Assembly (NCBI GenBank): GCA_031547365.1
Contig: JAVBSB010000052.1
Coordinates: 1 to 24,475 of the forward strand
Source of the DNA: Oscillospiraceae bacterium
GTDB taxonomy: Bacteria; Bacillota; Clostridia; Oscillospirales; Acutalibacteraceae
DNA: 24,475 nucleotides
Direction of reading: 5' to 3'
Both the position numbers and the translations under genes were made by a program. The notes under the pieces were generated by a model, which was not told the DNA's origin, did no database searches, and saw only the letters and a list, made by a program, of their open reading frames with translations. How positions within the stretch are numbered: the stretch's first letter is position 1; the number at the start of each line of letters is the position of its first letter. Below are positions 2,972 through 23,836 of this stretch, piece after piece.

Positions 2972-3679
2972 TTATAAATTTATAATGCGTGCTGCCAGCA
3001 CGGTGCGTGCGCCGTCGAACTGGTAGGAGCAAGTGGACAGTAAAACGATTTGATCAGTCTGTGTCACTCCAATATCGCGGAACTGCTTTGCCTGCCGTTC
3101 CAGCGATTGCAGCAGCGCGCGCTGTTGTTCACCGCTGCGGGGCAGGGAATAGGTGACAGAGTCGGCGGCCTTGACCACGGCGCAGGCAAAAAACTCCAGC
3201 TTAAGCTTGCGGCTTGCCAGATATATCTCACCGGTCGGGTGTTGGTTGAAAAACTCTTCATCTCCAAAGCTGACAATCGCATGAAACATGCTGCCGTTGC
3301 GCATATTGTGACCGTATAAAATGGTGTTTTTTCCGCTGAAGTCGGGTGCGCAGCGGTAGTCCATAAAGATGGTGCCTGCCGTTGCGCTTTTACCGTGCAG
3401 GTCGTGGCGCAGATACGTCTCATTGTCGTTTGTCTGCACAAACGGGTACTCCACCTGTGTGCCGGAAATGCTCAGCCAGCCCACTACGTCTCGGTTCATC
3501 TCCTGCAGCTTTGTGACTTGCGGGTTTTCGCCCTGCGCATCCGAAGGCTTATAGCGCAACGCTTCTTCGTACATCTCGCTTTGCTGCTTATACGTTTCAT
3601 TGATGCGCCATAATTGCCAGCCGCTAACCGCAAGCACCGCAGTCAAAATCAGGGCGGCAACAACGCGCCAGGGCTTCAT
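2972..3679 (-). CDS. srtB: Class B sortase
   Basis: GWLSISGTQVEYPFVQ, GTIFMDYR, ILYGHNMRNGSMF, catalytic LSTCSY and RTVL. Start refined to ATG 3679 (RBS AAGGAG, ATGA overlap with the upstream stop). Confidence 0.92.
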   Translation of the reverse strand: MKPWRVVAALILTAVLAVSGWQLWRINETYKQQSEMYEEALRYKPSDAQGENPQVTKLQEMNRDVVGWLSISGTQVEYPFVQTNDNETYLRHDLHGKSATAGTIFMDYRCAPDFSGKNTILYGHNMRNGSMFHAIVSFGDEEFFNQHPTGEIYLASRKLKLEFFACAVVKAADSVTYSLPRSGEQQRALLQSLERQAKQFRDIGVTQTDQIVLLSTCSYQFDGARTVLAARIINL

Positions 3680-4983
3680 GCTTTGCTCCTTTTCTTCGGA
3701 TGCCAGAACAGCAGCGCGCGAAGACCTATCGCGCTGCATATCATCGCGCAGAACCATGGCAGGTAATTGCTCGGGTCGCCTGTCTTTGGGCTGCCGCCAA
3801 CTCCATTTGAGCCGCCATTTGCCGCCGCGGTTGTGCTGCGGGTCATTGTGGTTGCCGGAGTTGTTTCGGGATTTAGGGTGGTTTTGGCTTCCGTAGCAGT
3901 CAACGATACCGATTCTCTGGTTGTAGAGGTTGCGGACCGTGTAGTGCTTGTAATCGGCAGAGTTGTAGGTACGGTTGTAGTTGTGGATCGCGCTGTGGTG
4001 GTAGTAGGCGGTTCTGTACTAGTGGGCGGTTCCGTTGTCGTTTCGATTGGCGCTGTGGTTGTCTCTCCGGGATCTGTAGAGCTTTCGCCGGGATCTGTAG
4101 AGCTTTCGCCGGGAATCGTGGTCGTTTCCCCTGGGTCTGTCGTCGTTGGTTCCGGTTCGCTTGTAGTCGGCTCCGGCGCGGTGGTCGGCTCCGGTTTTTG
4201 ATATAAAGTATTGGTTATATATGTATTGATCACGCCGCCTGTGCCGGTACCGAACCCATTGTCTACGCTGACCGCATATCCTTCCGGTACAGGATTGGCT
4301 TCGCGCACGTCGTACTGTACGCCGAAGGGCAGGTTATAGGTTCGCGTTTCACCGTGCTTCAGCGTTATGGTTTCGCTGGCACCGTCCAGAATGACAACGA
4401 TTGCGAACGGTTTATTCAGATTGCCTGCGCCTGCCACAACCTTTCTTATCACCAGCTGTGCGGCGCCGTGCTGGTCCGGATAACCAAAGGTGTTTGTAAA
4501 AGCGGCGACTGTTCCGCCGGCAGGTATGTTGGCGTGATGGTTTGTGCTGCTGACCGTATAGCCCAGGCTGTCGGTTTCCACTAAGGTATATATTGTACCC
4601 TCGGGTAAGTTTTCAATAAGAGCGGCCTCGCCATGCTTAAGTTGGAATGTGCCGCCGCTGCTGATGTTGCTCACGGCTTCGCCGATCCGCAGGGGATATG
4701 ACGCAGTTGTATCAAATTCAATCCTATAGGTAAATGCAAGCTGTTGCTGTAGGAGCGTGAGCGGGCTGCCGTCGTCATTGATGACCGTATTTGTGACAAT
4801 CAGACCCTCAAAATCCTGCGGCGCAGCGGGGCTGTGTATGCCGGAGGCTGCGTTTGTGCGGTGCTGCCGCAAATCTGACCAGGCCATGGTTCCTGTGATA
4901 ACGGCAGAAAGTACAAAAATTGACGCCAGAATCGCTGCGCAAAGCTTTACTTTTAGACTGCGCGCGTTATTGCCTGTTGGCAT
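3676..4983 (-). CDS. Cell-wall-anchored protein with a SipW-type N-terminus, two beta-rich domains, a Thr/Pro/Glu-rich stalk and an SPKTG sorting signal
   Basis: N-terminus ...VITGTMA/WSDLRQHRTNAASG. C-terminus SPKTGD + hydrophobic stretch + PKKRSKA. ATG 4983 with RBS AGGAGG at 4992-4997. Confidence 0.85.
   Translation of the reverse strand: MPTGNNARSLKVKLCAAILASIFVLSAVITGTMAWSDLRQHRTNAASGIHSPAAPQDFEGLIVTNTVINDDGSPLTLLQQQLAFTYRIEFDTTASYPLRIGEAVSNISSGGTFQLKHGEAALIENLPEGTIYTLVETDSLGYTVSSTNHHANIPAGGTVAAFTNTFGYPDQHGAAQLVIRKVVAGAGNLNKPFAIVVILDGASETITLKHGETRTYNLPFGVQYDVREANPVPEGYAVSVDNGFGTGTGGVINTYITNTLYQKPEPTTAPEPTTSEPEPTTTDPGETTTIPGESSTDPGESSTDPGETTTAPIETTTEPPTSTEPPTTTTARSTTTTVPTTLPITSTTRSATSTTRESVSLTATEAKTTLNPETTPATTMTRSTTAAANGGSNGVGGSPKTGDPSNYLPWFCAMICSAIGLRALLFWHPKKRSKA
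4067..4114. repeat. Coding 21-bp tandem repeat (2 exact copies + partial) inside a 7-aa-periodic stalk
   Basis: CCGGGATCTGTAGAGCTTTCG at 4067-4087 and 4088-4108, encoding PGESSTD x2. Degenerate neighbours include PGETTTI, PGETTTA and EPTT. Confidence 0.9.
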
Positions 4984-5011
4984 GGGAACCACCTCCTGTC
5001 ATTGAAATCCG

Positions 5012-5037
5012 CCTGCGGGACAACGATGCCCCGCAGG
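5012..5037 (-). other. GC-rich intra-operon stem-loop without U-tract
   Basis: CCTGCGGG (5012-5019) / CCCGCAGG (5030-5037), directly after the stop of 5049..6032. Confidence 0.6.
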
Positions 5038-5048
5038 TCTTATTAATA

Positions 5049-6032
5049 TTAAGGCTGCGCCGGTGTGATACCGTATGCGGTCAGTACTTTCGCGGGCGCG
5101 CCGGTAAATGCAGCCGTGACGTCGGTGCTGTCTGCGGCGTCCATGTCAACGTGAACGGCGTAATAAAACGCGCCTGCGGGCGACTGAATGAGTGTGATTG
5201 ATTCCAGCAGCTTTGCGGTGGCTTCGCCGGGATTTAGCTCCTGCCCCCAATACGCCCAGCCCTCCGTACTGCTGTCGTCCAAAATCCATTTGGCAGCGGC
5301 TGTGCCGTCCCAATTGCTTAACTTTACAACCTGTGTCCCCAGCGCCCACTCCACATACTGGTGGAATGGGTCTGCCGCGGCGCTGTTCCAGCGGTGCGGC
5401 GTGTAGAGGCATTCGCCGGCGGCGTGGGCTGCGCGGTCGGGGTTATATGCTGCGCGCGTTACGCCGGGAACCAGAGAGGTTTTCGCGCCGGCAGCGGCAT
5501 AGCTGAGAATCATTTTTTTGCCATAGAGCCCGTTGTACCTTGTGTTTTCGTCGGTTGCATAATAGTAACGCGCCGCCGTATCATTGTAGGCTTTATATTG
5601 CTTGATCTGTGCGTCATTTATGATTAGCCGGGGGTAGTTTGCGGTCAGCCAGACCTTTAGGTTTGCTGCTGTATCCGCGGCTGCAAAGCTGCCGTCGCTG
5701 TGCACAAGCAGATACTCGCTCGTATAAGTGTAGTCCACCTGCGCGACATCCATAAACTCTTTCAGCTGCATACGGATAAACACTTTACCTTCGCCGCTGT
5801 TTTTGACCCAAACTTTTTTTGTCAGGGTTTCGTCGGTATTCCACTCGTCAGGCTGTTCATAATCTTCAATCAGCACAACATCCTGTAAGGCGGTGCTGCC
5901 GTCGCCCGTAGCAATATTGGTTTTGTGCTGGCTGTGGTCCTTCCATGCCCAGGTTCCGCCGAGGATGCTCAGCAGCGTGAAAAGCGCCGCAAAAAGAGCC
6001 AACGCTTTACGATGGGATGATATAAAACGCAT
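5049..6032 (-). CDS. BsaA/TasA-like SipW-dependent biofilm matrix/fibre subunit 2
   Basis: SipW-type signal ...ILGGTWA/WKDHSQHKTNIATG. KKVWVKNSG..VFIRMQLKE and GWAYWGQELNPGEATAKLLESITL blocks. Clear paralogue of 8505..10082. Confidence 0.8.
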   Translation of the reverse strand: MRFISSHRKALALFAALFTLLSILGGTWAWKDHSQHKTNIATGDGSTALQDVVLIEDYEQPDEWNTDETLTKKVWVKNSGEGKVFIRMQLKEFMDVAQVDYTYTSEYLLVHSDGSFAAADTAANLKVWLTANYPRLIINDAQIKQYKAYNDTAARYYYATDENTRYNGLYGKKMILSYAAAGAKTSLVPGVTRAAYNPDRAAHAAGECLYTPHRWNSAAADPFHQYVEWALGTQVVKLSNWDGTAAAKWILDDSSTEGWAYWGQELNPGEATAKLLESITLIQSPAGAFYYAVHVDMDAADSTDVTAAFTGAPAKVLTAYGITPAQP

Positions 6033-6068
6033 AATAAACTTCCTTCTTTCGCCAAAGGTAAAGAGCTT

Positions 6069-8432
6069 TTACGAGGCTATCTGCGTGCCGAGCAATTCGC
6101 TTTTTACCCATACGGCAACGCGGTAGGGTTTGCTCAGCGCGGGTGCGGCTGAACTGAGCGTACCGGCAGGCGTAGCTGAGCCGTCAACAAAAGCGACCTG
6201 TGTGTTGTTGTCCGTACGCAGCCAATAATTCTGTTTGGTTCCCAGCTTGCCGTAGTTCGCCAATGCTTTCGGGTTGGAGCTGGTCGTATTATACTTCGCG
6301 CTGCAAAAACGCGCCGCTTCGCCGTAACTGAGCGCAAAGCCGATGTCGTTCGTCGTTAAGCCGTTATTCAATACGCTGTTGGGTATGCTCAAATTAGCAG
6401 CAGAGCCATATGTGCCCATTTTGCTCATTGCGTTGTGGGTGACCAAATAACTGCGAATAGGGGAGTTTGAGGGCAAGGTGCTCTTCATAAAGGTATTGAC
6501 CGCTGTGCGCATTGCGCCGGAGGTATACCCGGTTGCCGTTGCGCCGGCATCGATTTGAGCTACGCGCAGCATCAAGCTGTAGCGCTGTTCGAAAATATCG
6601 GAGTAGGACGCGATTTCGATCCAGGCGGAGCTGTCCTTCGCTTCGGACGCGCTCAAAGTGCGGCCGGTACGGGGCGCGGGCGTGCCGAGGTTGTCCGGTT
6701 CCGGGTCCAGCGGCCAGGGGTTGAATACCGTTTTCACGCCGTTAACCAGCGGGATTTCGACTGTCATATTGTTAATGATATGCTTTGCATACGCGACCGT
6801 ATCAGTGGCTGCGATTGGATTTGGGGTAAATACCAGTTCGGTGGTCCCTACTGCTTCCCAAGTGCCGTCGCTCATCACGAACCAAAAATATAAGCCTTCC
6901 GGGTCAAATGGGGTGCCGTTAATTTGCTGAATCGCCTCGCCCGAAATTGCCAGTCTCACTGCGGTGGCAGGCGGCGGAGGCGCTACGCCGTTAGTCAGCG
7001 GAACGATTGTATACATACTGTTATAGAATACATAAACTTCCGTTGTATCCGCTGCAATTTTTGAGGGGAAAAAGCTGCAATCCGCAAGGTCCACCGGAAC
7101 CCGGCTGGAATCGCTCATTTCAAGGAAAAATTCAATGTTGGTGCCGATAAAGGACTTTCCGATGATTTGCTCTACAGCCGTACCCCAATGGTTAAAGCCG
7201 GTGACCGTCGGGGTTGGCGGGACGACAATGGGCGTGGTGCCTTCGATTTGCAGCTTGTATGCTACGGCGGCATAGACTGTATGGCTTATGCCCCATTTAT
7301 CGGTCACTTGACCGACAACACCGGTAAAGCCGGGTTGTGCGCCCTCCTTCGGCGTAATGCGGTTGCCCGATACGGTGATGAAGTCATCCTCTCCGCCGAC
7401 CGGAGCCCAGGCAATGGCACCTGTTCCGTTTAAGGCTGCGGAAATATCCGAGCCCTCTTCGTCCAGCAGCAGCATACCAAGATGCGGCAGACCAACGGTA
7501 TTGATGCCGTCCGGCTTCGCGACCTGATAGTTTGCGCGTCTTCCGTATTTACCTGTCAGTGTAGTGGAAATAATCTGCGTAATTCCGGGTGCGTTCCCGG
7601 TTACGTCAGCAGAGCCTGATGTTATCTTCAGGACGCTCGCGTGCTCGTTGTATGAGCTGATCCATCGAGCCTGTCCCGGCATTTTTTCCGTTACGGTGCT
7701 GCCCACGTCCAGCTGCTTATAGCTGGGGTTTGGATTTGTAAAGCTGTAGCACGTATTCCCTGCGGACAGGGAAAGCTCCGTGCCGCCGTCGTCTGCTTCA
7801 ACTCCATAGGCGACGGTAAAATAAATTGATTGTGTTATACCGTATTTATCCATAAATGTGCCGCGCGCGGCTGTTATGCCGGGCGTGGCATTTGTTTTCA
7901 CAGTAATTTGCTTTCCGGATACAGTGATAATATCATTGTCCCCGGCTTGTGGCTCCCATGTAATGCTTGACTCCAGCCCCGAAGGAACCGTTGTAACCGG
8001 AATTTCGGCTTCGGTGTCACTGAGTCCGATCGTTGTTGAGGCGCTGCTTAAAACGACAGACGATATTCCGTCTGCATTGTATATCTGATAGTTTGCGCGC
8101 CTGCCAATTTTTCCTGTCAAAGATGTGGAGATGATCTGTGCTACACCGGGGGAAATACCTGCAACCTCGGCAGTGCCGGAGGTCAGCTTCGTAGCTTGGG
8201 CAATTGCGGCGTTGGTACTGGTCCAATATCCCTGCCCGGGCATTTTTTCTGTTTCGGTGTCGCCAACGGCAAGTTGCTTATAGCTTGGGTTTGGATTGGC
8301 ACAATCGACTCGTACCGCAGGCGCAAGTTGAACAGCCAGGGTTGCGCTAACCAAAGCAATCACTGCCGAAACAGCGATTGCCGCAGCCACAACGATTGCA
8401 ATCAATCGTTTGTTCCGCTTATGCGTTTTCAT
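6069..8432 (-). CDS. Large exported repeat protein, putative adhesin (Ig-like repeats + DUF6273-like C-terminus)
   Basis: Basic + hydrophobic N-terminus ending VSATLA. Two ~187-aa repeats starting NPNPSYKQL (codons at 8297 and 7736), two ~70-aa repeats ending VPLTNGV / IPLVNGV, and C-terminal FALSYGEA...YWLRT...RVAVWV. Confidence 0.7.
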   Translation of the reverse strand: MKTHKRNKRLIAIVVAAAIAVSAVIALVSATLAVQLAPAVRVDCANPNPSYKQLAVGDTETEKMPGQGYWTSTNAAIAQATKLTSGTAEVAGISPGVAQIISTSLTGKIGRRANYQIYNADGISSVVLSSASTTIGLSDTEAEIPVTTVPSGLESSITWEPQAGDNDIITVSGKQITVKTNATPGITAARGTFMDKYGITQSIYFTVAYGVEADDGGTELSLSAGNTCYSFTNPNPSYKQLDVGSTVTEKMPGQARWISSYNEHASVLKITSGSADVTGNAPGITQIISTTLTGKYGRRANYQVAKPDGINTVGLPHLGMLLLDEEGSDISAALNGTGAIAWAPVGGEDDFITVSGNRITPKEGAQPGFTGVVGQVTDKWGISHTVYAAVAYKLQIEGTTPIVVPPTPTVTGFNHWGTAVEQIIGKSFIGTNIEFFLEMSDSSRVPVDLADCSFFPSKIAADTTEVYVFYNSMYTIVPLTNGVAPPPPATAVRLAISGEAIQQINGTPFDPEGLYFWFVMSDGTWEAVGTTELVFTPNPIAATDTVAYAKHIINNMTVEIPLVNGVKTVFNPWPLDPEPDNLGTPAPRTGRTLSASEAKDSSAWIEIASYSDIFEQRYSLMLRVAQIDAGATATGYTSGAMRTAVNTFMKSTLPSNSPIRSYLVTHNAMSKMGTYGSAANLSIPNSVLNNGLTTNDIGFALSYGEAARFCSAKYNTTSSNPKALANYGKLGTKQNYWLRTDNNTQVAFVDGSATPAGTLSSAAPALSKPYRVAVWVKSELLGTQIAS

Positions 8433-8467
8433 CAGGTTACCCCCTATAAAAAGTGAACAACCAGCCG

Positions 8468-8485
8468 GGGCGGCTTGCGCCGCCC
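8468..8485 (-). other. GC-rich intra-operon stem-loop with GNRA loop, no U-tract
   Basis: On the - strand: GGGCGGC-GCAA-GCCGCCC, 19 nt after the stop of 8505..10082. Confidence 0.6.
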
Positions 8486-8504
8486 GCAGCAGATTTTTCA
8501 GTTG

Positions 8505-10082
8505 TTATTTATACATGTTGATGACGGTGAAGTCAGCGGTTTTGCCGGAAACGGAATCGGTGAGCGTAATCACGACGGGGACCTCCAGTATCCAGCCTGT
8601 GCCGTCGACAAAGTTATCTTCATTTAAGAAATCAACCCAGCTCATTAAGCATTTGGAGATAATCTTGCCATTGCTGATATAAATATCCGAGCTGGTGTAG
8701 GCATAACCGCTGGGGCTCTGGATATTGGTAATTTGAATGTCTGTAAGATTGACGCCCTGTCCGGAGACGATGATGTTGCCAAGCGGGATTTCGATGTGTC
8801 CTATTGCGCTGAACAAAGCGGCTTCCTCGTAGTCCAGGGTCATTTCCCAGTCTTCTTCGTCCCAAGGCTCGAACGTATCGGGATCCTGTGTCTGTGCATT
8901 GAAGAAAATGCGATCGTTTGAAGTAGCAGGTCTGTAAGAGGTTGAAAGTAGGTTGAGCGCAAGGTCGCCTGTGCCGCCTGTGCTGGTGGCGGCTTTCAAT
9001 GCTGCCACAACTGTGGCGTTGTCTGTCGCCCAGCCATCCAGACCCGCAAAGTCAACCGCTTCCATATCCGCGTGTACTGCATAGTAGAAGTTGCCGTCGG
9101 GCTGTTTATCGAGCTTCATCGTCTTAAGTAAATTTTTTGTGCTTGCGCCCGGCAGAACCGCTGCGCCCCAATATGCCCAGGCGTCGGTTGTTGTTCTGTC
9201 GTCAAGAATCCACTTGTTAACGCTTTCGCCGCCGCCTGTAATCCAATCGGAATAAAGAATCACATCAGCGCCGAGCTGCCACGAAATATATTCGCGGAAC
9301 GCATCGGATACCCCGCCGGTTTTCCAAGTGTGGGCGGTGAACCCGCATTCGATGTCGGAGCCATTTTCGTGACCGTAATCTTTGTCGTTGATCAACGCGT
9401 GGTCAACTGCGGTTGTGCCGTCTACAGTGACAGCGGTTGCGCCGGCAGAACCGCCTGCGACGGGGAGTTTGCGGCCGTACTGACCGTTGGGATCGCCTGC
9501 TTTTGTGCGGACATAGTAGTACTCAACCGTGTCATTGATTCCCTGCGCCAAAACGAAGTCCGCAGCCGTTAATGCCTGGACATAATCGCTTGCGCTGCCG
9601 CCGTTAACAACGTTTGCCCACTGCGCGTCGTTTTTGATGGTGGTCAGGTTTGCGGGGACAGAGGGATCAAGCGTTGCCGCAAAGCGTACGAATAAGCCGT
9701 CTGTACGTTGAATCAAAAACAGAGAAGGCTTCGTTTGGCTGTTTTCAATAAAATAGTCATAGGAGACCGCAGTGATATCCATGTATTCTTTCAGCGAAAT
9801 GCGCGTATAGATGCTGACGTACTCGTCGTCGTCAAACTGTGAGGTTCCGCCGATATTTTCAACGCGGATCTCTTTGGTGACGGGCGGATCGGATGTTTTC
9901 CAGTTCTTCGAGTTCTCAAAGTTTTCTACCAGATTGGCCATTGCCAGGGTACCCTTGCCTTCGTTGTGACCGGTTGCCTGGTCAAATTTTACGAAAGCCG
10001 CGTATGTGCCGCTGACCAATATGGCCAGCACGATCAGGGCGGCCGCCGCTGCAGCCAGACGTTTCTTGGTTTTGCTTTGCAT
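8505..10082 (-). CDS. BsaA/TasA-like SipW-dependent biofilm matrix/fibre subunit 1 (with C-terminal extension)
   Basis: SipW-type signal ...ILVSGTYA/AFVKF. KEIRVENIG, YTRISLKEYMD, WAYWGAAVLPGASTKNLL and FYYAVHADMEAVD blocks. RBS AAGGAG. Lies immediately downstream of sipW. Confidence 0.82.
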   Translation of the reverse strand: MQSKTKKRLAAAAAALIVLAILVSGTYAAFVKFDQATGHNEGKGTLAMANLVENFENSKNWKTSDPPVTKEIRVENIGGTSQFDDDEYVSIYTRISLKEYMDITAVSYDYFIENSQTKPSLFLIQRTDGLFVRFAATLDPSVPANLTTIKNDAQWANVVNGGSASDYVQALTAADFVLAQGINDTVEYYYVRTKAGDPNGQYGRKLPVAGGSAGATAVTVDGTTAVDHALINDKDYGHENGSDIECGFTAHTWKTGGVSDAFREYISWQLGADVILYSDWITGGGESVNKWILDDRTTTDAWAYWGAAVLPGASTKNLLKTMKLDKQPDGNFYYAVHADMEAVDFAGLDGWATDNATVVAALKAATSTGGTGDLALNLLSTSYRPATSNDRIFFNAQTQDPDTFEPWDEEDWEMTLDYEEAALFSAIGHIEIPLGNIIVSGQGVNLTDIQITNIQSPSGYAYTSSDIYISNGKIISKCLMSWVDFLNEDNFVDGTGWILEVPVVITLTDSVSGKTADFTVINMYK

Positions 10083-10154
10083 GGTTTAACGCTCCTTTTT
10101 CTTTAAACATTGTTTCATTGTGTTATTTGTCTGTATTTAAACGGATTTACCCGG

Positions 10155-10892
10155 TTAAACGTTTTTGGTTCGTCTTGTTTTTTTCTCTTTCTTTTTTCTT
10201 GGCTTCCTTTCGCCTTCCTGCTTTTTTTCTTCCTTGCTTTTTCGCGGCTTACCTAAAGCAATGCGCAGGAAGAAAGACAGCGCCAGCAATCCGCCGAACC
10301 ACAGCAGTATCAGCAAGAGATGATCCTTTACGAACTGCAAAATGCTCCCAAGCAGGGGGATGGATAAAATGACTACGCCCAGCACATTGTCCGCGTGCGT
10401 GATATCCAGGTCCGGAGAAATGTTTTCGACGCCCTTTGTTTCAAAGCCGCGCTTGCCGTTTTCATCAAAGTTGCCCAGAATGCCGACTACCTTATGGGTT
10501 GTGGTTTTATTGCCGTTATTTGAAAAGAAGGTGATGTTTTGACCAAGCTTTATCAGGTTGGGGTCGGTTTTTTTGACCAGTACAAGCGAGCCCTTCGGGA
10601 TTTCGCGCTGCATACTGCCGGAAAGGACGTTAAAGACATAAAAACCGGCGATATCCCGTGCGCCTCTGTCCCCCGCGTTGGTAGCGCATATGACCGCGAC
10701 AAAGCAGGCAAGGACCAGCGCGACACAAAAGATGATGTTTGACACAGCCTTCCAAACGACCTTGCTCTTGCCTGTGCCTTTCGGTTCCGGCGGCGCGCTG
10801 TGGCATGCGCCGGACTCAAGCATAGTCAGCAGCTCGTCAACAAAAGCTTCATCTTCAAGGTATTCATCAATATATACCTCTGGCACCATCAT
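10155..10892 (-). CDS. sipW: Signal peptidase I, SipW (ER/archaeal type)
   Basis: NVLSGSM (catalytic Ser codon 10614-10616), TTTHKV (His codon 10494-10496), ETKG..N..D, two TM segments and a Lys-rich tail. Start moved to 10892 because the promoter at 10942-10970 lies inside the longer ORF call. Confidence 0.9.
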   Translation of the reverse strand: MMVPEVYIDEYLEDEAFVDELLTMLESGACHSAPPEPKGTGKSKVVWKAVSNIIFCVALVLACFVAVICATNAGDRGARDIAGFYVFNVLSGSMQREIPKGSLVLVKKTDPNLIKLGQNITFFSNNGNKTTTHKVVGILGNFDENGKRGFETKGVENISPDLDITHADNVLGVVILSIPLLGSILQFVKDHLLLILLWFGGLLALSFFLRIALGKPRKSKEEKKQEGERKPRKKKEKKTRRTKNV

Positions 10893-10941
10893 AACTTTTT
10901 TACATTCCTGTGTTTTTATTTTCCGGCTTTCACACGCTATC

Positions 10942-10970
10942 ATTGTAACGTGTGAATGTATAAATGTCAA
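10942..10970 (-). promoter_or_regulatory. SigA-type promoter of the sipW operon
   Basis: TTGACA (10970-10965), 17 bp, TACAAT (10947-10942). Confidence 0.8.
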
Positions 10971-11105
10971 CAAAGTCAGTGTGCTAATAGGTGAAGAATG
11001 CGGATATAAAAACACATAGCACAAAATATGGAAACGTCTTTGTAATTCGATGCCAGTTTCTGAAACGCGCCTGCTAACATATTCCAGAGATAAATCGCTA
11101 AGCTT

Positions 11106-11148
11106 AAAAACAACCTCGCTGTCTTAACATGACACAGCGAGGCTGTTT
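11106..11148 (-). terminator. Intrinsic terminator after the GRE fusion gene
   Basis: CCTCGCTGT (11114-11122) / ACAGCGAGG (11134-11142), with an A5 run on + giving a U-tract on -. Confidence 0.75.
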
Positions 11149-11166: not shown

Positions 11167-14100
11167 TTATCCGTAGCAGGTACGATTGATAATAACTTTC
11201 TTTAAGTCGTCCGAAAGCTCGTTAAAATAGGCGCAGTAGCCCGCCACGCGCACCATCAGGTATTTATATTTTTCGGGGTGGTTATAGGCGTCGAGCAGCA
11301 GGTCGCGGCTGATGATATTGGGCTGGAATTGCATCCCGCCGGTGGTCAGAAAAGTCTTGAAGATTCCGCCGAGGTTCTTAACGCCCTGTTCGCCGGGGAA
11401 CAGCGCTGCGTCGATGGTGAACGTTGCGGTGGTACCGTTTACGGCGTAGTCGGTAAAGTTCACCTGCGCCAGCGCGTTAAGGGAGCTGAGCAGATCCGCC
11501 TTTTCCATGCCGTAGTGCGGCGCGACGCTGTTGGCCAAAGGCACGCCCTTACGCCTGCCGGAGGGCAGCGCCTGCGTCTTAATACCATATCGATCGCTGA
11601 CGTTGAGCGCGTAATAGCCTGCGGTGTATTGTCCGTTGCGCAGCGCATAGGGACACGCCTCAAGCGCTTCGTTATATATCTGCATCACGCGGCTGACCCA
11701 GCTTGCGGCGTCAATTGAGCTGTCATCGCCAAACTTGGGAACCGCCAATAAATCCTTGCGCAGCGATTGATGCGCTTCACCCTCAAAGTTCGCGTCGATC
11801 GCCTGTATCACCTGCAACAGACTGTATTTTTTCTGCTTGAACACCAGCTCGTCAATGGCATACAGCGAATCCGCAACGTCTGTCACGCCGACTGCCTGAA
11901 TGCCCGCGGTGTTGTATTTTGTGCCGCCCTCATATGCGTCCTTGCCGCTTTCCATGCAGCCCCGATACAGCGACGAAGCCAGCGGCGTTGTGTAGTATTC
12001 GCGCAGCGCCCTTTCGATGGTCTGCTGGTCGTCAAGAATGGATTTCGCAAGGGCGTTCAGCCGCGCCTTAAAGCGCGAGAGCAGCTCGGTCATGTCCTTC
12101 GGCGGGTTGTATTCATATAGCCCGCGCTTTCTGTTTCGTTTAACAATAGCTTTTTCGCGCCGTTCGGCAAGGTCGGGCTTCGCGAATTCGATTACGCGCG
12201 TGACCATTTTTTCTACCTGCAAGCCAAACCCGAAATTCCACAGGTCATGCTCATGCCCCTTCAGCGCCTGCAGCAGCGGCAGGGCAAGGTTCATATTGGC
12301 GCTGTCGGTGTTGCCAAAGTGGTCGTCGCTGGCAACAGGCTCCACGCAGCCAACGATGGAATAATTGCGCGCGTTTTCGATCGTAGTGTCATAGTGCTTT
12401 GTTAGGGTGTCAAAGTAGATGTTGTCGCTGAACAGCTCCGGCATTGGGCAGCCGTTGATGTATATTTCCGCAAGTCTGTCAAGGTAACGCGCGGGATTTT
12501 TTTCGTGGATGCGGGCGCACATATTGATGGCTAAGGGCTGCAGCTCGCAGGCGTCAATGCACATGTAGGTCACGTCGTTGACGGCGTCGTTGCCGTCTTT
12601 GTCTACGCCGCCGAAGGTCAGAGCCTGGTCGACGGAAAGCGTCTCAAACAGCTTACTGACGTTCAGCAGACCGTCGCCGTCGTTGACAAGTATTACTTCA
12701 TCCATCTTCAGCACAAACAGGCACAGCAGCTCTTTTGCTTCTTCATAGGTAATGCGCCCGGCCTCCAGGTCCCGCCTGAAGTATGGAAATAATATCTGGT
12801 CAATTCGGCCGAACGACACCGCGTTTTCATAAGCTTCGATGCACAGCGCAATCTGAAGAAACAGCATGCTCTGCAGCGCCTCGTGAAAGGTGCGCGCGGG
12901 GTGCTTTGGCACGCGGCGACAGATTGCTTCCATTTTTTCAAGCTCAGCCCTTCGCGTACGGTCGCTCTCGTTGACCGCCAGCGTGCGCAGCGCCTGCGCA
13001 TATCGCTCTGCCCAGATTTCCAGGGCGTCCAGCGCAATCAAAACGCCTCTGTAGAAATCCTGGTTATTTTCAGGGTGCGCCTTTGCCATGGCGCGGGCTT
13101 CTGCCTTCAGTCCCGTTGTACCCAGCTCCAATATGCGTTCAAAGTTAACGACATAGTGGGCAATGGCGGCAAAGTTATTGTTAAAGCCGGTGGAGGTTTC
13201 CGCAATGCGCGCCAGATTCAAAAAAAGCTTGCCGAAGCTGGTGTGTCCGCGCATGACGGTGCTTTTGTTGAGCCAGTAGGGAAAAATATGCTTGTAAAAA
13301 TAGCTGCGCTCCTCCTTCGTGGAGCTAAAGGCAACGGGTGTTTGCTTTGCTGCCTTGTAGAGAAAGGTGACATACAGCGTACCATATTGCTCCTCCCAGA
13401 TTTGCCCCGCAACACGCTTGCTTGTGAAGTTGCCGACCAGCAGCTCGCCGGGATAGACGATGGTTTTTTTTCGCCCCAGCACATAGTGCAGGCGCTGTGC
13501 GCGGTGAATTGCGACAGGCTTTTTGAAGCCGTCATATTTTTTATAGTACTCTGTCTTGAGCCTGGAAACTTCAAAGCAAATGGAGCGTTCGCTTTCGCGT
13601 ATGGCGCTCTGAATGTCCAGTACACGCTGCGTGAATTGTGCCTGCGGCGGATTTTCAGCAAGGTCGTCGTTGCGGGCGGAAACGCCGTATTGCCGGAACA
13701 GGTCAATTCCTTTTTTCAGCGAAAACAGGCTTTGCTCCGGCGTAATGTTCAGCTGCGGTATTTCCAGGTCCAGCCGCGCCGCTTTGCCCTCGTACATGTT
13801 GTGGTACTTCATCAGCTCAATTTGGTCAAAACCGAACGATTTGATATACTCTGCCGCAGCCTTAATCTGCGCTTCGCTGTCATTTAAGCCCGGCACCATC
13901 AGCATGCGTATCCTTAGATTCGCGCCCCGCGCAACGAGCTTTTCAAAATTGCCGTGTATGAGCTTGTCGTCCTTACCTGTCAAGTCCTTATGTACCTGCG
14001 CGCTGCCGACGAGCTTCAGGTCAACGAGAAAAAGATCAATATATGGCAGCAGCGCCTCTATGGTTTTCCACGGCGCACAAAGAGCGGTCTCTGCCGCTAT

Positions 14101-14430
14101 ATGGATGCCCTTGTCTTTTAGCAGAACCAACAATTCTTTCAGGCTGTCTTTGTCCTGCAAAAACGGTTCGCCGCCCGAGAGCGTAACGCCGCCCTGCGAT
14201 TGCGTATAGTATTTTTCATCTCGAAGCACCAATTCCGCAATCTCTTGCGCGGAGAGAATTTCATCACCCTCCTGCGGCAGGCGAGAAAGAATTTCGGGGT
14301 TTTGGCACCACTGACAACGCAGCGCACAACCTCTAAAAAATAGAGTCGTGCGCAGCCCGGGACCGTCGTGTACGCAGCTGCGTTGCACGCGGACGACATT
14401 AAGCCTTGTTTTTGTCTGAACCATTGGCAT
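11167..14430 (-). CDS. Fusion of glycyl-radical activating enzyme (radical SAM) and glycyl radical enzyme (PFL-like family, non-PFL)
   Basis: aa 1-~260: HDGPGLRT, CALRCQWC, GGVTLSGGEP. aa ~267-1087: GELLVGN, IVGCVEP (Cys695), RVAGY (Gly1064). One uninterrupted ORF with RBS AGGAGG at 14438-14443. Confidence 0.93.
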   Translation of the reverse strand: MPMVQTKTRLNVVRVQRSCVHDGPGLRTTLFFRGCALRCQWCQNPEILSRLPQEGDEILSAQEIAELVLRDEKYYTQSQGGVTLSGGEPFLQDKDSLKELLVLLKDKGIHIAAETALCAPWKTIEALLPYIDLFLVDLKLVGSAQVHKDLTGKDDKLIHGNFEKLVARGANLRIRMLMVPGLNDSEAQIKAAAEYIKSFGFDQIELMKYHNMYEGKAARLDLEIPQLNITPEQSLFSLKKGIDLFRQYGVSARNDDLAENPPQAQFTQRVLDIQSAIRESERSICFEVSRLKTEYYKKYDGFKKPVAIHRAQRLHYVLGRKKTIVYPGELLVGNFTSKRVAGQIWEEQYGTLYVTFLYKAAKQTPVAFSSTKEERSYFYKHIFPYWLNKSTVMRGHTSFGKLFLNLARIAETSTGFNNNFAAIAHYVVNFERILELGTTGLKAEARAMAKAHPENNQDFYRGVLIALDALEIWAERYAQALRTLAVNESDRTRRAELEKMEAICRRVPKHPARTFHEALQSMLFLQIALCIEAYENAVSFGRIDQILFPYFRRDLEAGRITYEEAKELLCLFVLKMDEVILVNDGDGLLNVSKLFETLSVDQALTFGGVDKDGNDAVNDVTYMCIDACELQPLAINMCARIHEKNPARYLDRLAEIYINGCPMPELFSDNIYFDTLTKHYDTTIENARNYSIVGCVEPVASDDHFGNTDSANMNLALPLLQALKGHEHDLWNFGFGLQVEKMVTRVIEFAKPDLAERREKAIVKRNRKRGLYEYNPPKDMTELLSRFKARLNALAKSILDDQQTIERALREYYTTPLASSLYRGCMESGKDAYEGGTKYNTAGIQAVGVTDVADSLYAIDELVFKQKKYSLLQVIQAIDANFEGEAHQSLRKDLLAVPKFGDDSSIDAASWVSRVMQIYNEALEACPYALRNGQYTAGYYALNVSDRYGIKTQALPSGRRKGVPLANSVAPHYGMEKADLLSSLNALAQVNFTDYAVNGTTATFTIDAALFPGEQGVKNLGGIFKTFLTTGGMQFQPNIISRDLLLDAYNHPEKYKYLMVRVAGYCAYFNELSDDLKKVIINRTCYG

Positions 14431-14462
14431 ATGCTCGCCTCCTGTTGTGATTGATTATCCTC

Positions 14463-14491
14463 ATTATAGCATAACACCAATAAAATATCCA
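14463..14491 (-). promoter_or_regulatory. Extended -10 promoter of the GRE fusion gene
   Basis: TGCTATAAT (14471-14463) with TGGATA at 17-bp spacing (14491-14486). Confidence 0.6.
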
Positions 14492-22206: not shown

Positions 22207-22259
22207 TTTTCTCACTAAGTGGTGATCTCACCTCTTTCCTGTGGAATGCGTCCAAACCC

Positions 22260-22293
22260 ACAACCCTTCGATGAAAATCGGGGGGTTGTTTTT
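22260..22293 (+). terminator. Intrinsic terminator after the zinc-ribbon gene
   Basis: ACAACCCTTCGA (22260-22271) / TCGGGGGGTTGT (22278-22289) followed by TTTT. Confidence 0.7.
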
Positions 22294-22294
22294 C

Positions 22295-22323
22295 TTGACA
22301 TGGCGGCGAAAAAGCGCTATAAT
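22295..22323 (+). promoter_or_regulatory. Consensus SigA promoter of scfAB
   Basis: TTGACA (22295-22300), 17 bp, TATAAT (22318-22323). Confidence 0.88.
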
Positions 22324-22358
22324 GTTGAGGATCATTATACGAAAGAGAGCGTGCTATT

Positions 22359-22508
22359 ATGCAACGTATCCAAACTGTCGAAACCCGCGACCTGCGCGAG
22401 AGCCTTTGCGGCGGCGGCTGCGGCGAATGCCAGACCTCCTGCCAATCGGCGAGCAAGACTTCCTGCGGCGTGGCGAATCAACCCTGCGAAAACAAAGACG
22501 CGGAATGA
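22359..22508 (+). CDS. scfA: SCIFF ranthipeptide precursor (variant)
   Basis: Not in the ORF track. Manual translation: MQRIQTVETRDLRESLCGGGCGECQTSCQSASKTSCGVANQPCENKDAE. The stop overlaps the scfB start (ATGA). Confidence 0.93.
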   Translation: MQRIQTVETRDLRESLCGGGCGECQTSCQSASKTSCGVANQPCENKDAE

Positions 22509-23836
22509 TTCACGCCTACCAGCTCCACGGCAGCCGCATCATACTGGATGTGAACAGCGGGTCGGTGCATATCACCGACCCGGTGGCTTTCTATGCGATC
22601 ACGCATTGGGGGCTGACGCAGGCAGATCTGCAGGCGCAATTTCCCGGGGAAGATTTGCAGGGCTTGTTCAAGGATATTCAGGCGCTGATCGACGCGGGAA
22701 AGCTGTTTGCGCCCGAAATAGAATTTACCGAGAGCACCGCGAGGCGAGGAACCCCGCCACAGGTGATAAAGGCGCTGTGCCTGCACGTGTCGCATACCTG
22801 CAACCTTACATGTGATTATTGCTTTGCGCAAGCGGGGCGTTATCACGGTGCGCAGGCGCTGATGTCCTATGAAGTTGGCAGGCGTGCGCTGGATTTTTTG
22901 ATTGCGCATTCCGGCACACACAAAAACCTGGAGGTTGATTTTTTTGGCGGCGAGCCGTTGATGAACTGGCAGGTTGTGAAGGATTTAGTTGCCTATGCGC
23001 GCGAAATCGAGGGCAAGGCAGATAAGAATTTCCGCTTTACACTCACCACCAACGGCTTGTTGCTCGACGACGACGTGATTGCCTTTGCCAACGAAGAGAT
23101 GTCCAACGTGGTGCTGAGCCTGGACGGCCGCAAAGAAATCCACGACAGCCTGCGCCGTACGGTCAACGGCAAAGGCAGCTATGATTTAATACTGCCGAAG
23201 TTTCAGCAGTTTGTGCAGGCGCGCAAGGGCAAAAATTATTATATGCGTGGTACTTTTACGCACAACAACCCCGATTTTACGCAGGATTTATATCACATGG
23301 CGCAGCAGGGCTTCCGCTCGCTCTCAATGGAGCCTGTGGTCTGTGCGCCCGGCAGCGCATACGCCCTGACGCAAGAGGACATCGCCGTTGTGCTGCGGGA
23401 ATATGAAGCGCTTGCCCTGGAAATGTCGAAACGCAAGGGGACAAAAGAAGAATTTAGTTTTTATCACTACAATTTGGATTTAAAGCACGGACCGTGCATC
23501 TACAAGCGCATCGCGGGCTGCGGCAGCGGCACGAACTATCTTGCCGTTACGCCCGCAGGCGAATTATATCCCTGCCATCAGTTTGTCGGCGAAACAGAAG
23601 CATGCATGGGCGACGTTTGGCAGGGCATTACCCGTCCGCAACTCTATGAGGCTTTTGCCGCGAATACCCTGCAATCGAAGCCGGAATGTCGGGACTGTTG
23701 GGCAAAATATTACTGCGCCGGCGGCTGTGCCGCAAACGCTTATCATGCCTGCGGCTCAATTCAGGGCATTTACGCCGATGGCTGTACGCTCTTTAAAAAG
23801 CGTATGGAGTGCGCAATCTGGCTTGCCAGCCAATAA
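22505..23836 (+). CDS. scfB: Thioether cross-link-forming SCIFF peptide maturase (radical SAM/SPASM)
   Basis: MIHAYQLHGSRIILDVNSGSVH, KALCLHVSHTCNLTCDYCFA, VDFFGGEP, and SPASM cysteines CGSG..YPC..CRDC..CAGGC. True start is 22505, not 22241. Confidence 0.95.
   Translation: MIHAYQLHGSRIILDVNSGSVHITDPVAFYAITHWGLTQADLQAQFPGEDLQGLFKDIQALIDAGKLFAPEIEFTESTARRGTPPQVIKALCLHVSHTCNLTCDYCFAQAGRYHGAQALMSYEVGRRALDFLIAHSGTHKNLEVDFFGGEPLMNWQVVKDLVAYAREIEGKADKNFRFTLTTNGLLLDDDVIAFANEEMSNVVLSLDGRKEIHDSLRRTVNGKGSYDLILPKFQQFVQARKGKNYYMRGTFTHNNPDFTQDLYHMAQQGFRSLSMEPVVCAPGSAYALTQEDIAVVLREYEALALEMSKRKGTKEEFSFYHYNLDLKHGPCIYKRIAGCGSGTNYLAVTPAGELYPCHQFVGETEACMGDVWQGITRPQLYEAFAANTLQSKPECRDCWAKYYCAGGCAANAYHACGSIQGIYADGCTLFKKRMECAIWLASQ

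Follow-up and report, generated by a model that had tools for sequence, protein, structure and literature searches.

Can an oxygen-sensitive glycyl radical enzyme (GRE) carry its own activating enzyme on the same polypeptide chain? The question is raised by a 24,475-nt stretch of DNA (hereafter the window) from an Oscillospiraceae bacterium, a member of the Clostridia of termite-gut type (contig JAVBSB010000052.1 of assembly GCA_031547365.1), in which positions 11167–14430 of the minus strand form a single open reading frame (ORF) with an ATG start that encodes a protein of 1087 aa, P0001. A first-pass annotation had read this frame as a radical-S-adenosylmethionine (SAM) activase fused to a GRE, and we find that P0001 belongs to a real family, widespread among uncultured anaerobes, that is a fused variant of the known GRE/activase system. 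We regard it as likely that the gene is a single-gene GRE system, in which the fused activase activates its own GRE for a dehydratase-like elimination on a polar, hydroxylated substrate. The features of the gene to which we refer, including those based on an AlphaFold2 (AF2) model with its predicted local distance difference test (pLDDT) scores and on alignment with glycerol dehydratase (GDH), are as follows.

11167..14430, minus strand: activase–linker–GRE fusion (P0001), whole ORF, 1087 aa plus stop (ORF call, Pfam and NCBIfam profiles)
14463..14491, minus strand: promoter-like site TGGATA-17-(TG)CTATAAT with an extended −10, 10/12 matches (match to consensus only)
14438..14443, minus strand: ribosome-binding site AGGAGG, 7 nt 5′ of the ATG at 14430 (sequence match)
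13672..14430, minus strand: radical-SAM activase domain, aa 1–253, with DGPGxR at 22–27, SGGEP at 85–89, and D137, K139 and H147 (Pfam, NCBIfam, alignment)
14305..14328, minus strand: CxxxCxxC motif of the [4Fe-4S]/SAM cluster, C35, C39 and C42 (translation, alignment)
13633..13671, minus strand: linker, aa 254–266, DDLAENPPQAQFT, 13 residues, AF2 pLDDT 78–88 (alignment, AF2 model)
11170..13632, minus strand: GRE domain, aa 267–1087, PFL-like barrel plus glycine radical domain (Pfam, sequence and fold matches in the PDB)
12625..12648, minus strand: family-specific pocket loop F595-E596-T597-x-S599-x-D601-Q602, aligned with GDH F333–Q340 (FGGYPMYQ); pLDDT 59, that is, low model confidence (alignment, AF2)
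12337..12351, minus strand: Cys loop G694-C695-V696-E697-P698, with the thiyl radical Cys and the general-base Glu of 1,2-eliminases (alignment)
12121..12249, minus strand: insert of ~40 residues, aa ~728–770, two modeled helices, found only in the family of P0001 (AF2, alignment)
11233..11250, minus strand: glycyl radical motif R1061-V-A-G1064-Y-C1066 (Pfam, alignment)

Both enzymes are complete in this one frame. Pfam places Radical_SAM/Fer4_12 at aa 22–186 (Radical_SAM at aa 31–186), PFL-like (PF02901, 446 bits) from aa 269 onward, and Gly_radical (PF01228, 70.6 bits against a cut-off of 22.2) at aa 967–1070, and the signature motifs of each domain are intact, namely CALRCQWC (aa 35–42), GCVEP (aa 694–698, with Cys695 and Glu697) and RVAGYC (aa 1061–1066, with Gly1064). 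The complete GRE with Cys695 and Gly1064 that the first-pass annotation described is thus supported by motif positions, Pfam and alignment alike, as is its activase of short type, with an intact CxxxCxxC and no ferredoxin insert, subject to the qualifier that the TIGR02494 profile fits this domain better than the PflA profile.

The fused architecture is not rare. A search with the activase part, restricted to proteins long enough for a fusion (598–1900 aa), returned 507 clusters at 90% identity; the best 120 of the 507 all combine Radical_SAM with PFL-like, and Gly_radical is also present in these wherever the protein is not cut short. Database clusters thus number in the hundreds, and at least two fused lineages exist. 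In contigs sampled at one genome per species, all checked loci of at least 55% identity hold one ORF of about 1090–1130 codons. An exhaustive search with the GRE part sets off a family, which we call the short-fused family, by a sharp gap, with members at >1000 bits and 59–61% identity versus ≤505 bits and ≤38% for all the rest. Thirty-six members from Bacillota, Thermodesulfobacteriota, Spirochaetota and Asgard archaea match P0001 over the full length with 55–76% identity, and the family as a whole ranges over Bacillota, deltaproteobacterial lineages, Spirochaetota, Hydrogenedentota and Asgard archaea. The linker aligns without gaps and is constant in length across the family, while its sequence varies (mean identity 39%). 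Closer to home, fused homologues occur in 8 of 15 same-genus genomes, one termite-gut bin holds two copies, and 21 other genera of the same bacterial family yielded none.

The family is phylogenetically coherent. It is monophyletic in the GRE tree (support 100), on a long stem. When the family tree is rooted, the copies from Bacillota group together (100), with a clade of Asgard and Hydrogenedentota copies as their sister (99), and both lie within a grade of deltaproteobacterial lineages, a position from which the archaeal copies look as if they were acquired from bacteria. We considered whether apparently unfused members signal fission of the gene, and rejected this: P0122, P0125 and a match in the congeneric genome G002 (a 233-codon frame) are all truncated at a contig end, and each of them opens with residues that match the last part of the activase domain. 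Two further members deserve mention for their own sake. A congeneric fused homologue (G015:C35:44761-48123) has an extra in-frame ~35 codons near aa 932 in an open frame of 1175 codons, and L064 (JBBCAX010000168.1, “Deltaproteobacteria bacterium TL4”) is the sole family member among 80 loci that lacks a metagenome-assembled genome label and may come from a cultured or enriched organism.

The activase domain passes the TIGR02494 (PFLE_PFLC) profile with 208 bits (cut-off 174), in two stretches that skip profile positions 40–103, and stays below the cut-off of TIGR02493 (PflA; 141 bits versus 232). It aligns to the structures of the activating enzyme of pyruvate formate-lyase (PFL-AE; 3C8F/8FO0) over aa 18–249, and no CxxCxxCxxxC ferredoxin motif is found in it. 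A ferredoxin insert with two auxiliary [4Fe-4S] motifs is usual in the TIGR02494 subfamily and is dispensable for activase chemistry; judged by its profile matches, the N-terminal domain is most like the TIGR02494 type minus this di-cluster insert. In the activase tree, the short-fused family is monophyletic (99/99) and does not group with the PflA-type activases of this genome. An origin of the short activase from the PflA type was rejected on these two grounds, the higher TIGR02494 score and the separation in the tree. The insert was likely lost from a long-type activase, with the tree position relative to the long types leaving this ancestry ambiguous. Across the 36 members from several phyla, the glycine-loop-binding motif DGPGxR, CxxxCxxC, SGG(E/D)P, D137, K139 and H147 are all invariant, with E88 being either E or D; since these motifs do not otherwise vary, the domain is under selection as an enzyme.

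The GRE domain is likewise conserved at its catalytic positions, with C695, E697, H425 and D709 invariant or nearly so, and R1061 and G1064 invariant, in the 36 members. GCVEP aligns with the Cys loops of GDH, propanediol dehydratase and CutC and contains a single Cys, the adjacent Cys-Cys pair of the PFL type being missing; Cys-x-Glu marks 1,2-eliminases, whereas a Cys-Cys pair marks PFL. H425 and D709 align with His164 and Asp447 of GDH, and we presume that C695, E697, H425 and D709 have the roles of their equivalents in GDH and propanediol dehydratase. The pyruvate formate-lyase profile (TIGR01255) gives 117 bits, far below its cut-off of 994, and the equivalog profiles for CutC, HypD, HpfG, HpsG and the indoleacetate and hydroxyphenylacetate decarboxylases give 199–353 bits against cut-offs of 1000–1150. 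All six named positions of the pocket loop (FETLSVDQ in P0001) are invariant in the family, and the ~40-residue helical insert is confined to it. The AF2 model of P0001 (pLDDT 86.8, predicted template modeling score (pTM) 0.86) has an ordered linker, and its closest folds are the propanediol, glycerol and choline (CutC) eliminases and Archaeoglobus fulgidus PFL2, with template modeling (TM) scores of 0.90–0.92. These features point to a dehydratase-like radical eliminase with a polar, probably polyhydroxylated substrate.

Comparison with individual enzymes shows where P0001 departs from this group. A. fulgidus PFL2/PflD (PDB 2F3O), whose function is unproven and substrate unsettled, is, of the solved structures, the one that matches best in sequence (E 9e-102; TM 0.92, root mean square deviation 2.9). 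Like P0001, it contains GCVE with only one Cys, equivalents of the His and the Asp, and YE(N/Q)A(V/I)S where GDH has H281-S282. It is only ~30% identical, however; its activase is encoded by a gene of its own, the ~40-residue insert is missing, and the loop reads FSGQATNQ instead of FETLSVDQ. GDH (1R8W) and 1,2-propanediol dehydratase (5I2A/5I2G, 9RCO–9RCR) have the same fold (TM 0.90–0.91), keep Cys-x-Glu and the His164 and Asp447 equivalents, and also use an activase of the TIGR02494 family; however, they are 26–28% identical to P0001, and their activases are separate and of the long type, whereas that of P0001 is fused and without the ferredoxin insert. His281-Ser282 of GDH corresponds to Asn536-Ala537 in P0001, as in A. 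fulgidus PFL2, and the GDH pocket loop FGGYPMYQ contrasts with the polar, acidic loop of P0001. CutC, HypD, the sulfonate GREs (IslA/IseG, HpsG and HpfG) and the PflD/YbiW anhydro-sugar-phosphate dehydratases belong to the same eliminase-type superfamily with Cys-x-Glu (E 1e-63 to 1e-93), but P0001 gives only 217–353 bits with their equivalog models, whose cut-offs are 1000–1100, and unlike P0001 they all have separate activases. The premise of the first-pass annotation, that characterized GREs use a separate activase, holds for the systems compared here, including CutC, HypD, GDH and propanediol dehydratase.

We infer self-activation, eliminase chemistry and a polar substrate in the following form. 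The activase domain, with one [4Fe-4S] cluster and SAM, would take a hydrogen from Gly1064 of its own chain or of its dimer partner; the activated GRE would then move the radical to Cys695, and Cys695 together with Glu697, His425 and Asp709 would catalyze a 1,2-elimination of dehydratase type, on a substrate that is probably small, polar and hydroxylated. It is reasonable to expect one of these two routes, in cis or between dimer partners, for the activation. Both functions and a promoter of its own in one gene would make this a self-sufficient unit, and because a one-gene unit needs no partner gene, the scattered, cross-domain distribution of the family fits such a system.

This reading presupposes that the fusion is genuine, and that no assembly error, frameshift in sequencing or overlooked stop codon has joined adjacent activase and GRE genes. 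There is some reason to ask, in that many distant relatives (~30% identity) have a separate activase gene directly 5′ of the GRE gene, and the window is one contig (C144) of a 1.18-Mb metagenomic bin, 69% complete, from an invertebrate gut. However, both alternative frames at the junction (LAENPPQAQFTQRV / DDLAENPPQAQFTQRV, aa 254–266, nt 13633–13671) are closed by stops, no homopolymer run of at least 5 bases was found there, and the junction is spanned without a single difference or gap by a DNA contig (11261–15076) and by a metatranscriptome contig from a different sample (12869–13784); both are contigs made by an assembler and not raw reads, and the sample behind the DNA run may be the one that yielded the window. 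Hundreds of independently assembled fused homologues, moreover, have the same linker length. We therefore rejected an assembly or frameshift artifact, which has practically no chance of being correct. One in-frame ORF of 1087 aa, free of a stop, an internal start or ribosome-binding site, and a slippery site at the junction, is accordingly what the ORF, the Pfam domains, the junction scan and the spanning contigs all return, just as first described. The same chain might instead be cleaved at the linker, or the GRE might also be translated alone, so that activase and GRE would work as two proteins, as they do in classical systems. The linker is indeed the least conserved segment, but its length does not change across phyla, it is modeled as ordered, no in-frame ATG, GTG or TTG and no Shine–Dalgarno-like site lies between aa 213 and 316, and no protease gene is consistently adjacent, which together make processing or separate translation highly improbable.

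Alternatively, the activase could be a vestigial scaffold or could serve other GREs, the fused GRE being activated by another enzyme. Classical activases are catalytic, so a 1:1 stoichiometry is unnecessary, and the genome encodes two more GREs and other activase-like genes, one of which (244 aa, on contig C109) lies away from any GRE in the stretch examined. On the other hand, the radical-SAM and GRE-recognition motifs are invariant across phyla, so the domain is not vestigial; the other two GREs, on C163 and C40, each have an activase gene beside them; and the fused gene usually stands alone in varied contexts, an arrangement that is sensible only if it is self-sufficient. We hold this explanation to be unlikely. 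Returning to the self-activating, dehydratase-like enzyme that we favor, several observations weigh against it. The GRE reaches no curated cut-off among the NCBIfam enzyme families, and even its best model, TIGR01774 (PFL2/glycerol dehydratase), gives 492 bits against 678, and Ser282 of GDH is Ala in P0001, so that the chemistry may differ from diol dehydration; the gene neighborhoods yield no consistent pathway; and the other activase-like genes of the genome, including the stand-alone one on C109, could in principle act on the fused GRE. A more far-reaching version, which we consider doubtful, would have activase and GRE form a rigid stoichiometric complex, with cis or cross-dimer activation of Gly1064, for an undescribed radical dehydration of a sugar-, inositol- or phospholipid-headgroup polyol, the gene having spread by transfer among phyla and into Asgard archaea. 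Rigidity is suggested here because the linker is constant in length and modeled as ordered and because the pTM is 0.86.

RNA-library contigs cover the fusion gene piecewise, with nothing over 9704–11123, and DNA depth is even. This evidence is consistent with transcription of the fusion gene, and the coverage fits its being transcribed separately from the downstream fiber and sortase genes, although holes between contigs prove little.

The nearest GREs outside the short-fused family share 34–38% identity, and some of these are also fused. A second fused lineage (P0124, P0130 and P0236; L076:5587-9267, L078:5971-9258 and L089:4786-9255), from bins labeled Rickettsiales, Enterobacterales and Thermoanaerobaculia, has an activase that retains two CxxCxxCxxxC ferredoxin motifs. 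These long-type fusions resemble P0001 in domain order, in a homologous and alignable junction, and in their place within one larger GRE clade together with it (36–38% identity), but they form a separate clade, have the ferredoxin-motif activase and lack the helical insert; they are likewise uncharacterized. P0125, itself a fragment of a fused gene, is the sister of the short-fused family, and in other members of the larger clade a long-type activase is encoded on its own, directly 5′ of the GRE gene. We did not adopt a single fusion event as the origin of both types: the junctions align, but in the GRE tree the two fused groups stand apart, with unfused enzymes in between, and fusion may have occurred once or more than once. 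The simplest reading would be that fusion arose from an activase-then-GRE gene order and that the short family later dropped the ferredoxin insert. Separately, an ESM Atlas cluster of ~1133-aa proteins combines PFL-like, Gly_radical and Fer4_12, and its few labeled members are mostly eukaryotic (Bacillariophyta), from which activase–GRE fusions may occur in diatoms too.

The open-access literature yielded no biochemical or structural work on an activase–GRE fusion of PFL type, and sequence and fold searches found no PDB chain that covers both activase and GRE. A precedent, noted from sequence only, is the fusion of NrdD and NrdG in one ORF in eukaryotic class III ribonucleotide reductases, which was interpreted as helping a transferred operon to be expressed (PMC3019208). 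NrdDG differs from P0001 in belonging to another GRE class and in being eukaryotic; its GRE-first order is read from the name NrdDG only.

A natural, conserved single-chain activase–GRE could hold the activation complex together for cryogenic electron microscopy or crystallography, and would fix the stoichiometry for kinetics. We know of no full-length enzyme pair for which extraction of the buried glycine loop by the activase and installation of the radical have been seen; the one solved complex known to us is that of PFL-AE with a peptide. A GRE system contained in one gene would also be easier to transfer to new hosts for biocatalysis. The family further represents a putative eliminase whose polar pocket is distinctive. 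It is found in Clostridia of termite guts, syntrophic deltaproteobacteria, spirochaetes and Asgard archaea, and given its presence in all of these, the substrate is probably a metabolite common among anaerobes, with a route of radical breakdown that has yet to be described.

Gene neighborhoods offer hints as to the nature of this metabolite. Clustering of neighbors for 60 loci shows that the surroundings of the fusion gene are not conserved, with recurrences that are lineage-specific only. A FadR/GntR-type regulator lies directly 5′ of the fusion gene in 10 Smithella-type loci, and a glycoside-pentoside-hexuronide (GPH):cation symporter lies near it in 8 Bacillota loci, directly 5′ in the closest relative (76% identity). 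Among hand-picked neighbors examined with Pfam, a sulfatase is found 5′ of the gene in 3 spirochaete loci and Metallophos phosphoesterases in 3 loci, with single cases of GDPD, PI-PLC-X, PLD, GH31, a sugar-isomerase TIM barrel and a GlpA-like flavoprotein. None of these neighbors, recurrent or single, is present in the window, and on this ground, together with the lineage-specific nature of the recurrent partners, we rejected an assignment of the substrate from context. Short of evidence, the neighbors hint at polyols of sugars or of phospholipid headgroups.

Within the window itself, the fusion gene is divergent from its upstream gene, and the next downstream gene is 143 nt away; its neighbors are a fiber/sortase operon and a DivIVA module, both unrelated to GREs. 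The operon, 3′ of the fusion gene, is a co-oriented run on the minus strand (2972–11024). Four of its genes encode large proteins without a Pfam match (289, 525, 787 and 327 aa), after which come genes for a DUF7601 protein and a sortase; RNA-library contigs cover only part of this surface-fiber operon. Two other loci of this genome concern radical chemistry. The stand-alone 244-aa activase gene on C109 (G000 C109:2804-3454; loci L005/L011) is PflA-like, with no GRE detected on the stretch examined, and at 22241–23836 on the plus strand of the window, 3′ of a sigma-70-family gene, lies a radical SAM protein of 531 aa with a SPASM domain.

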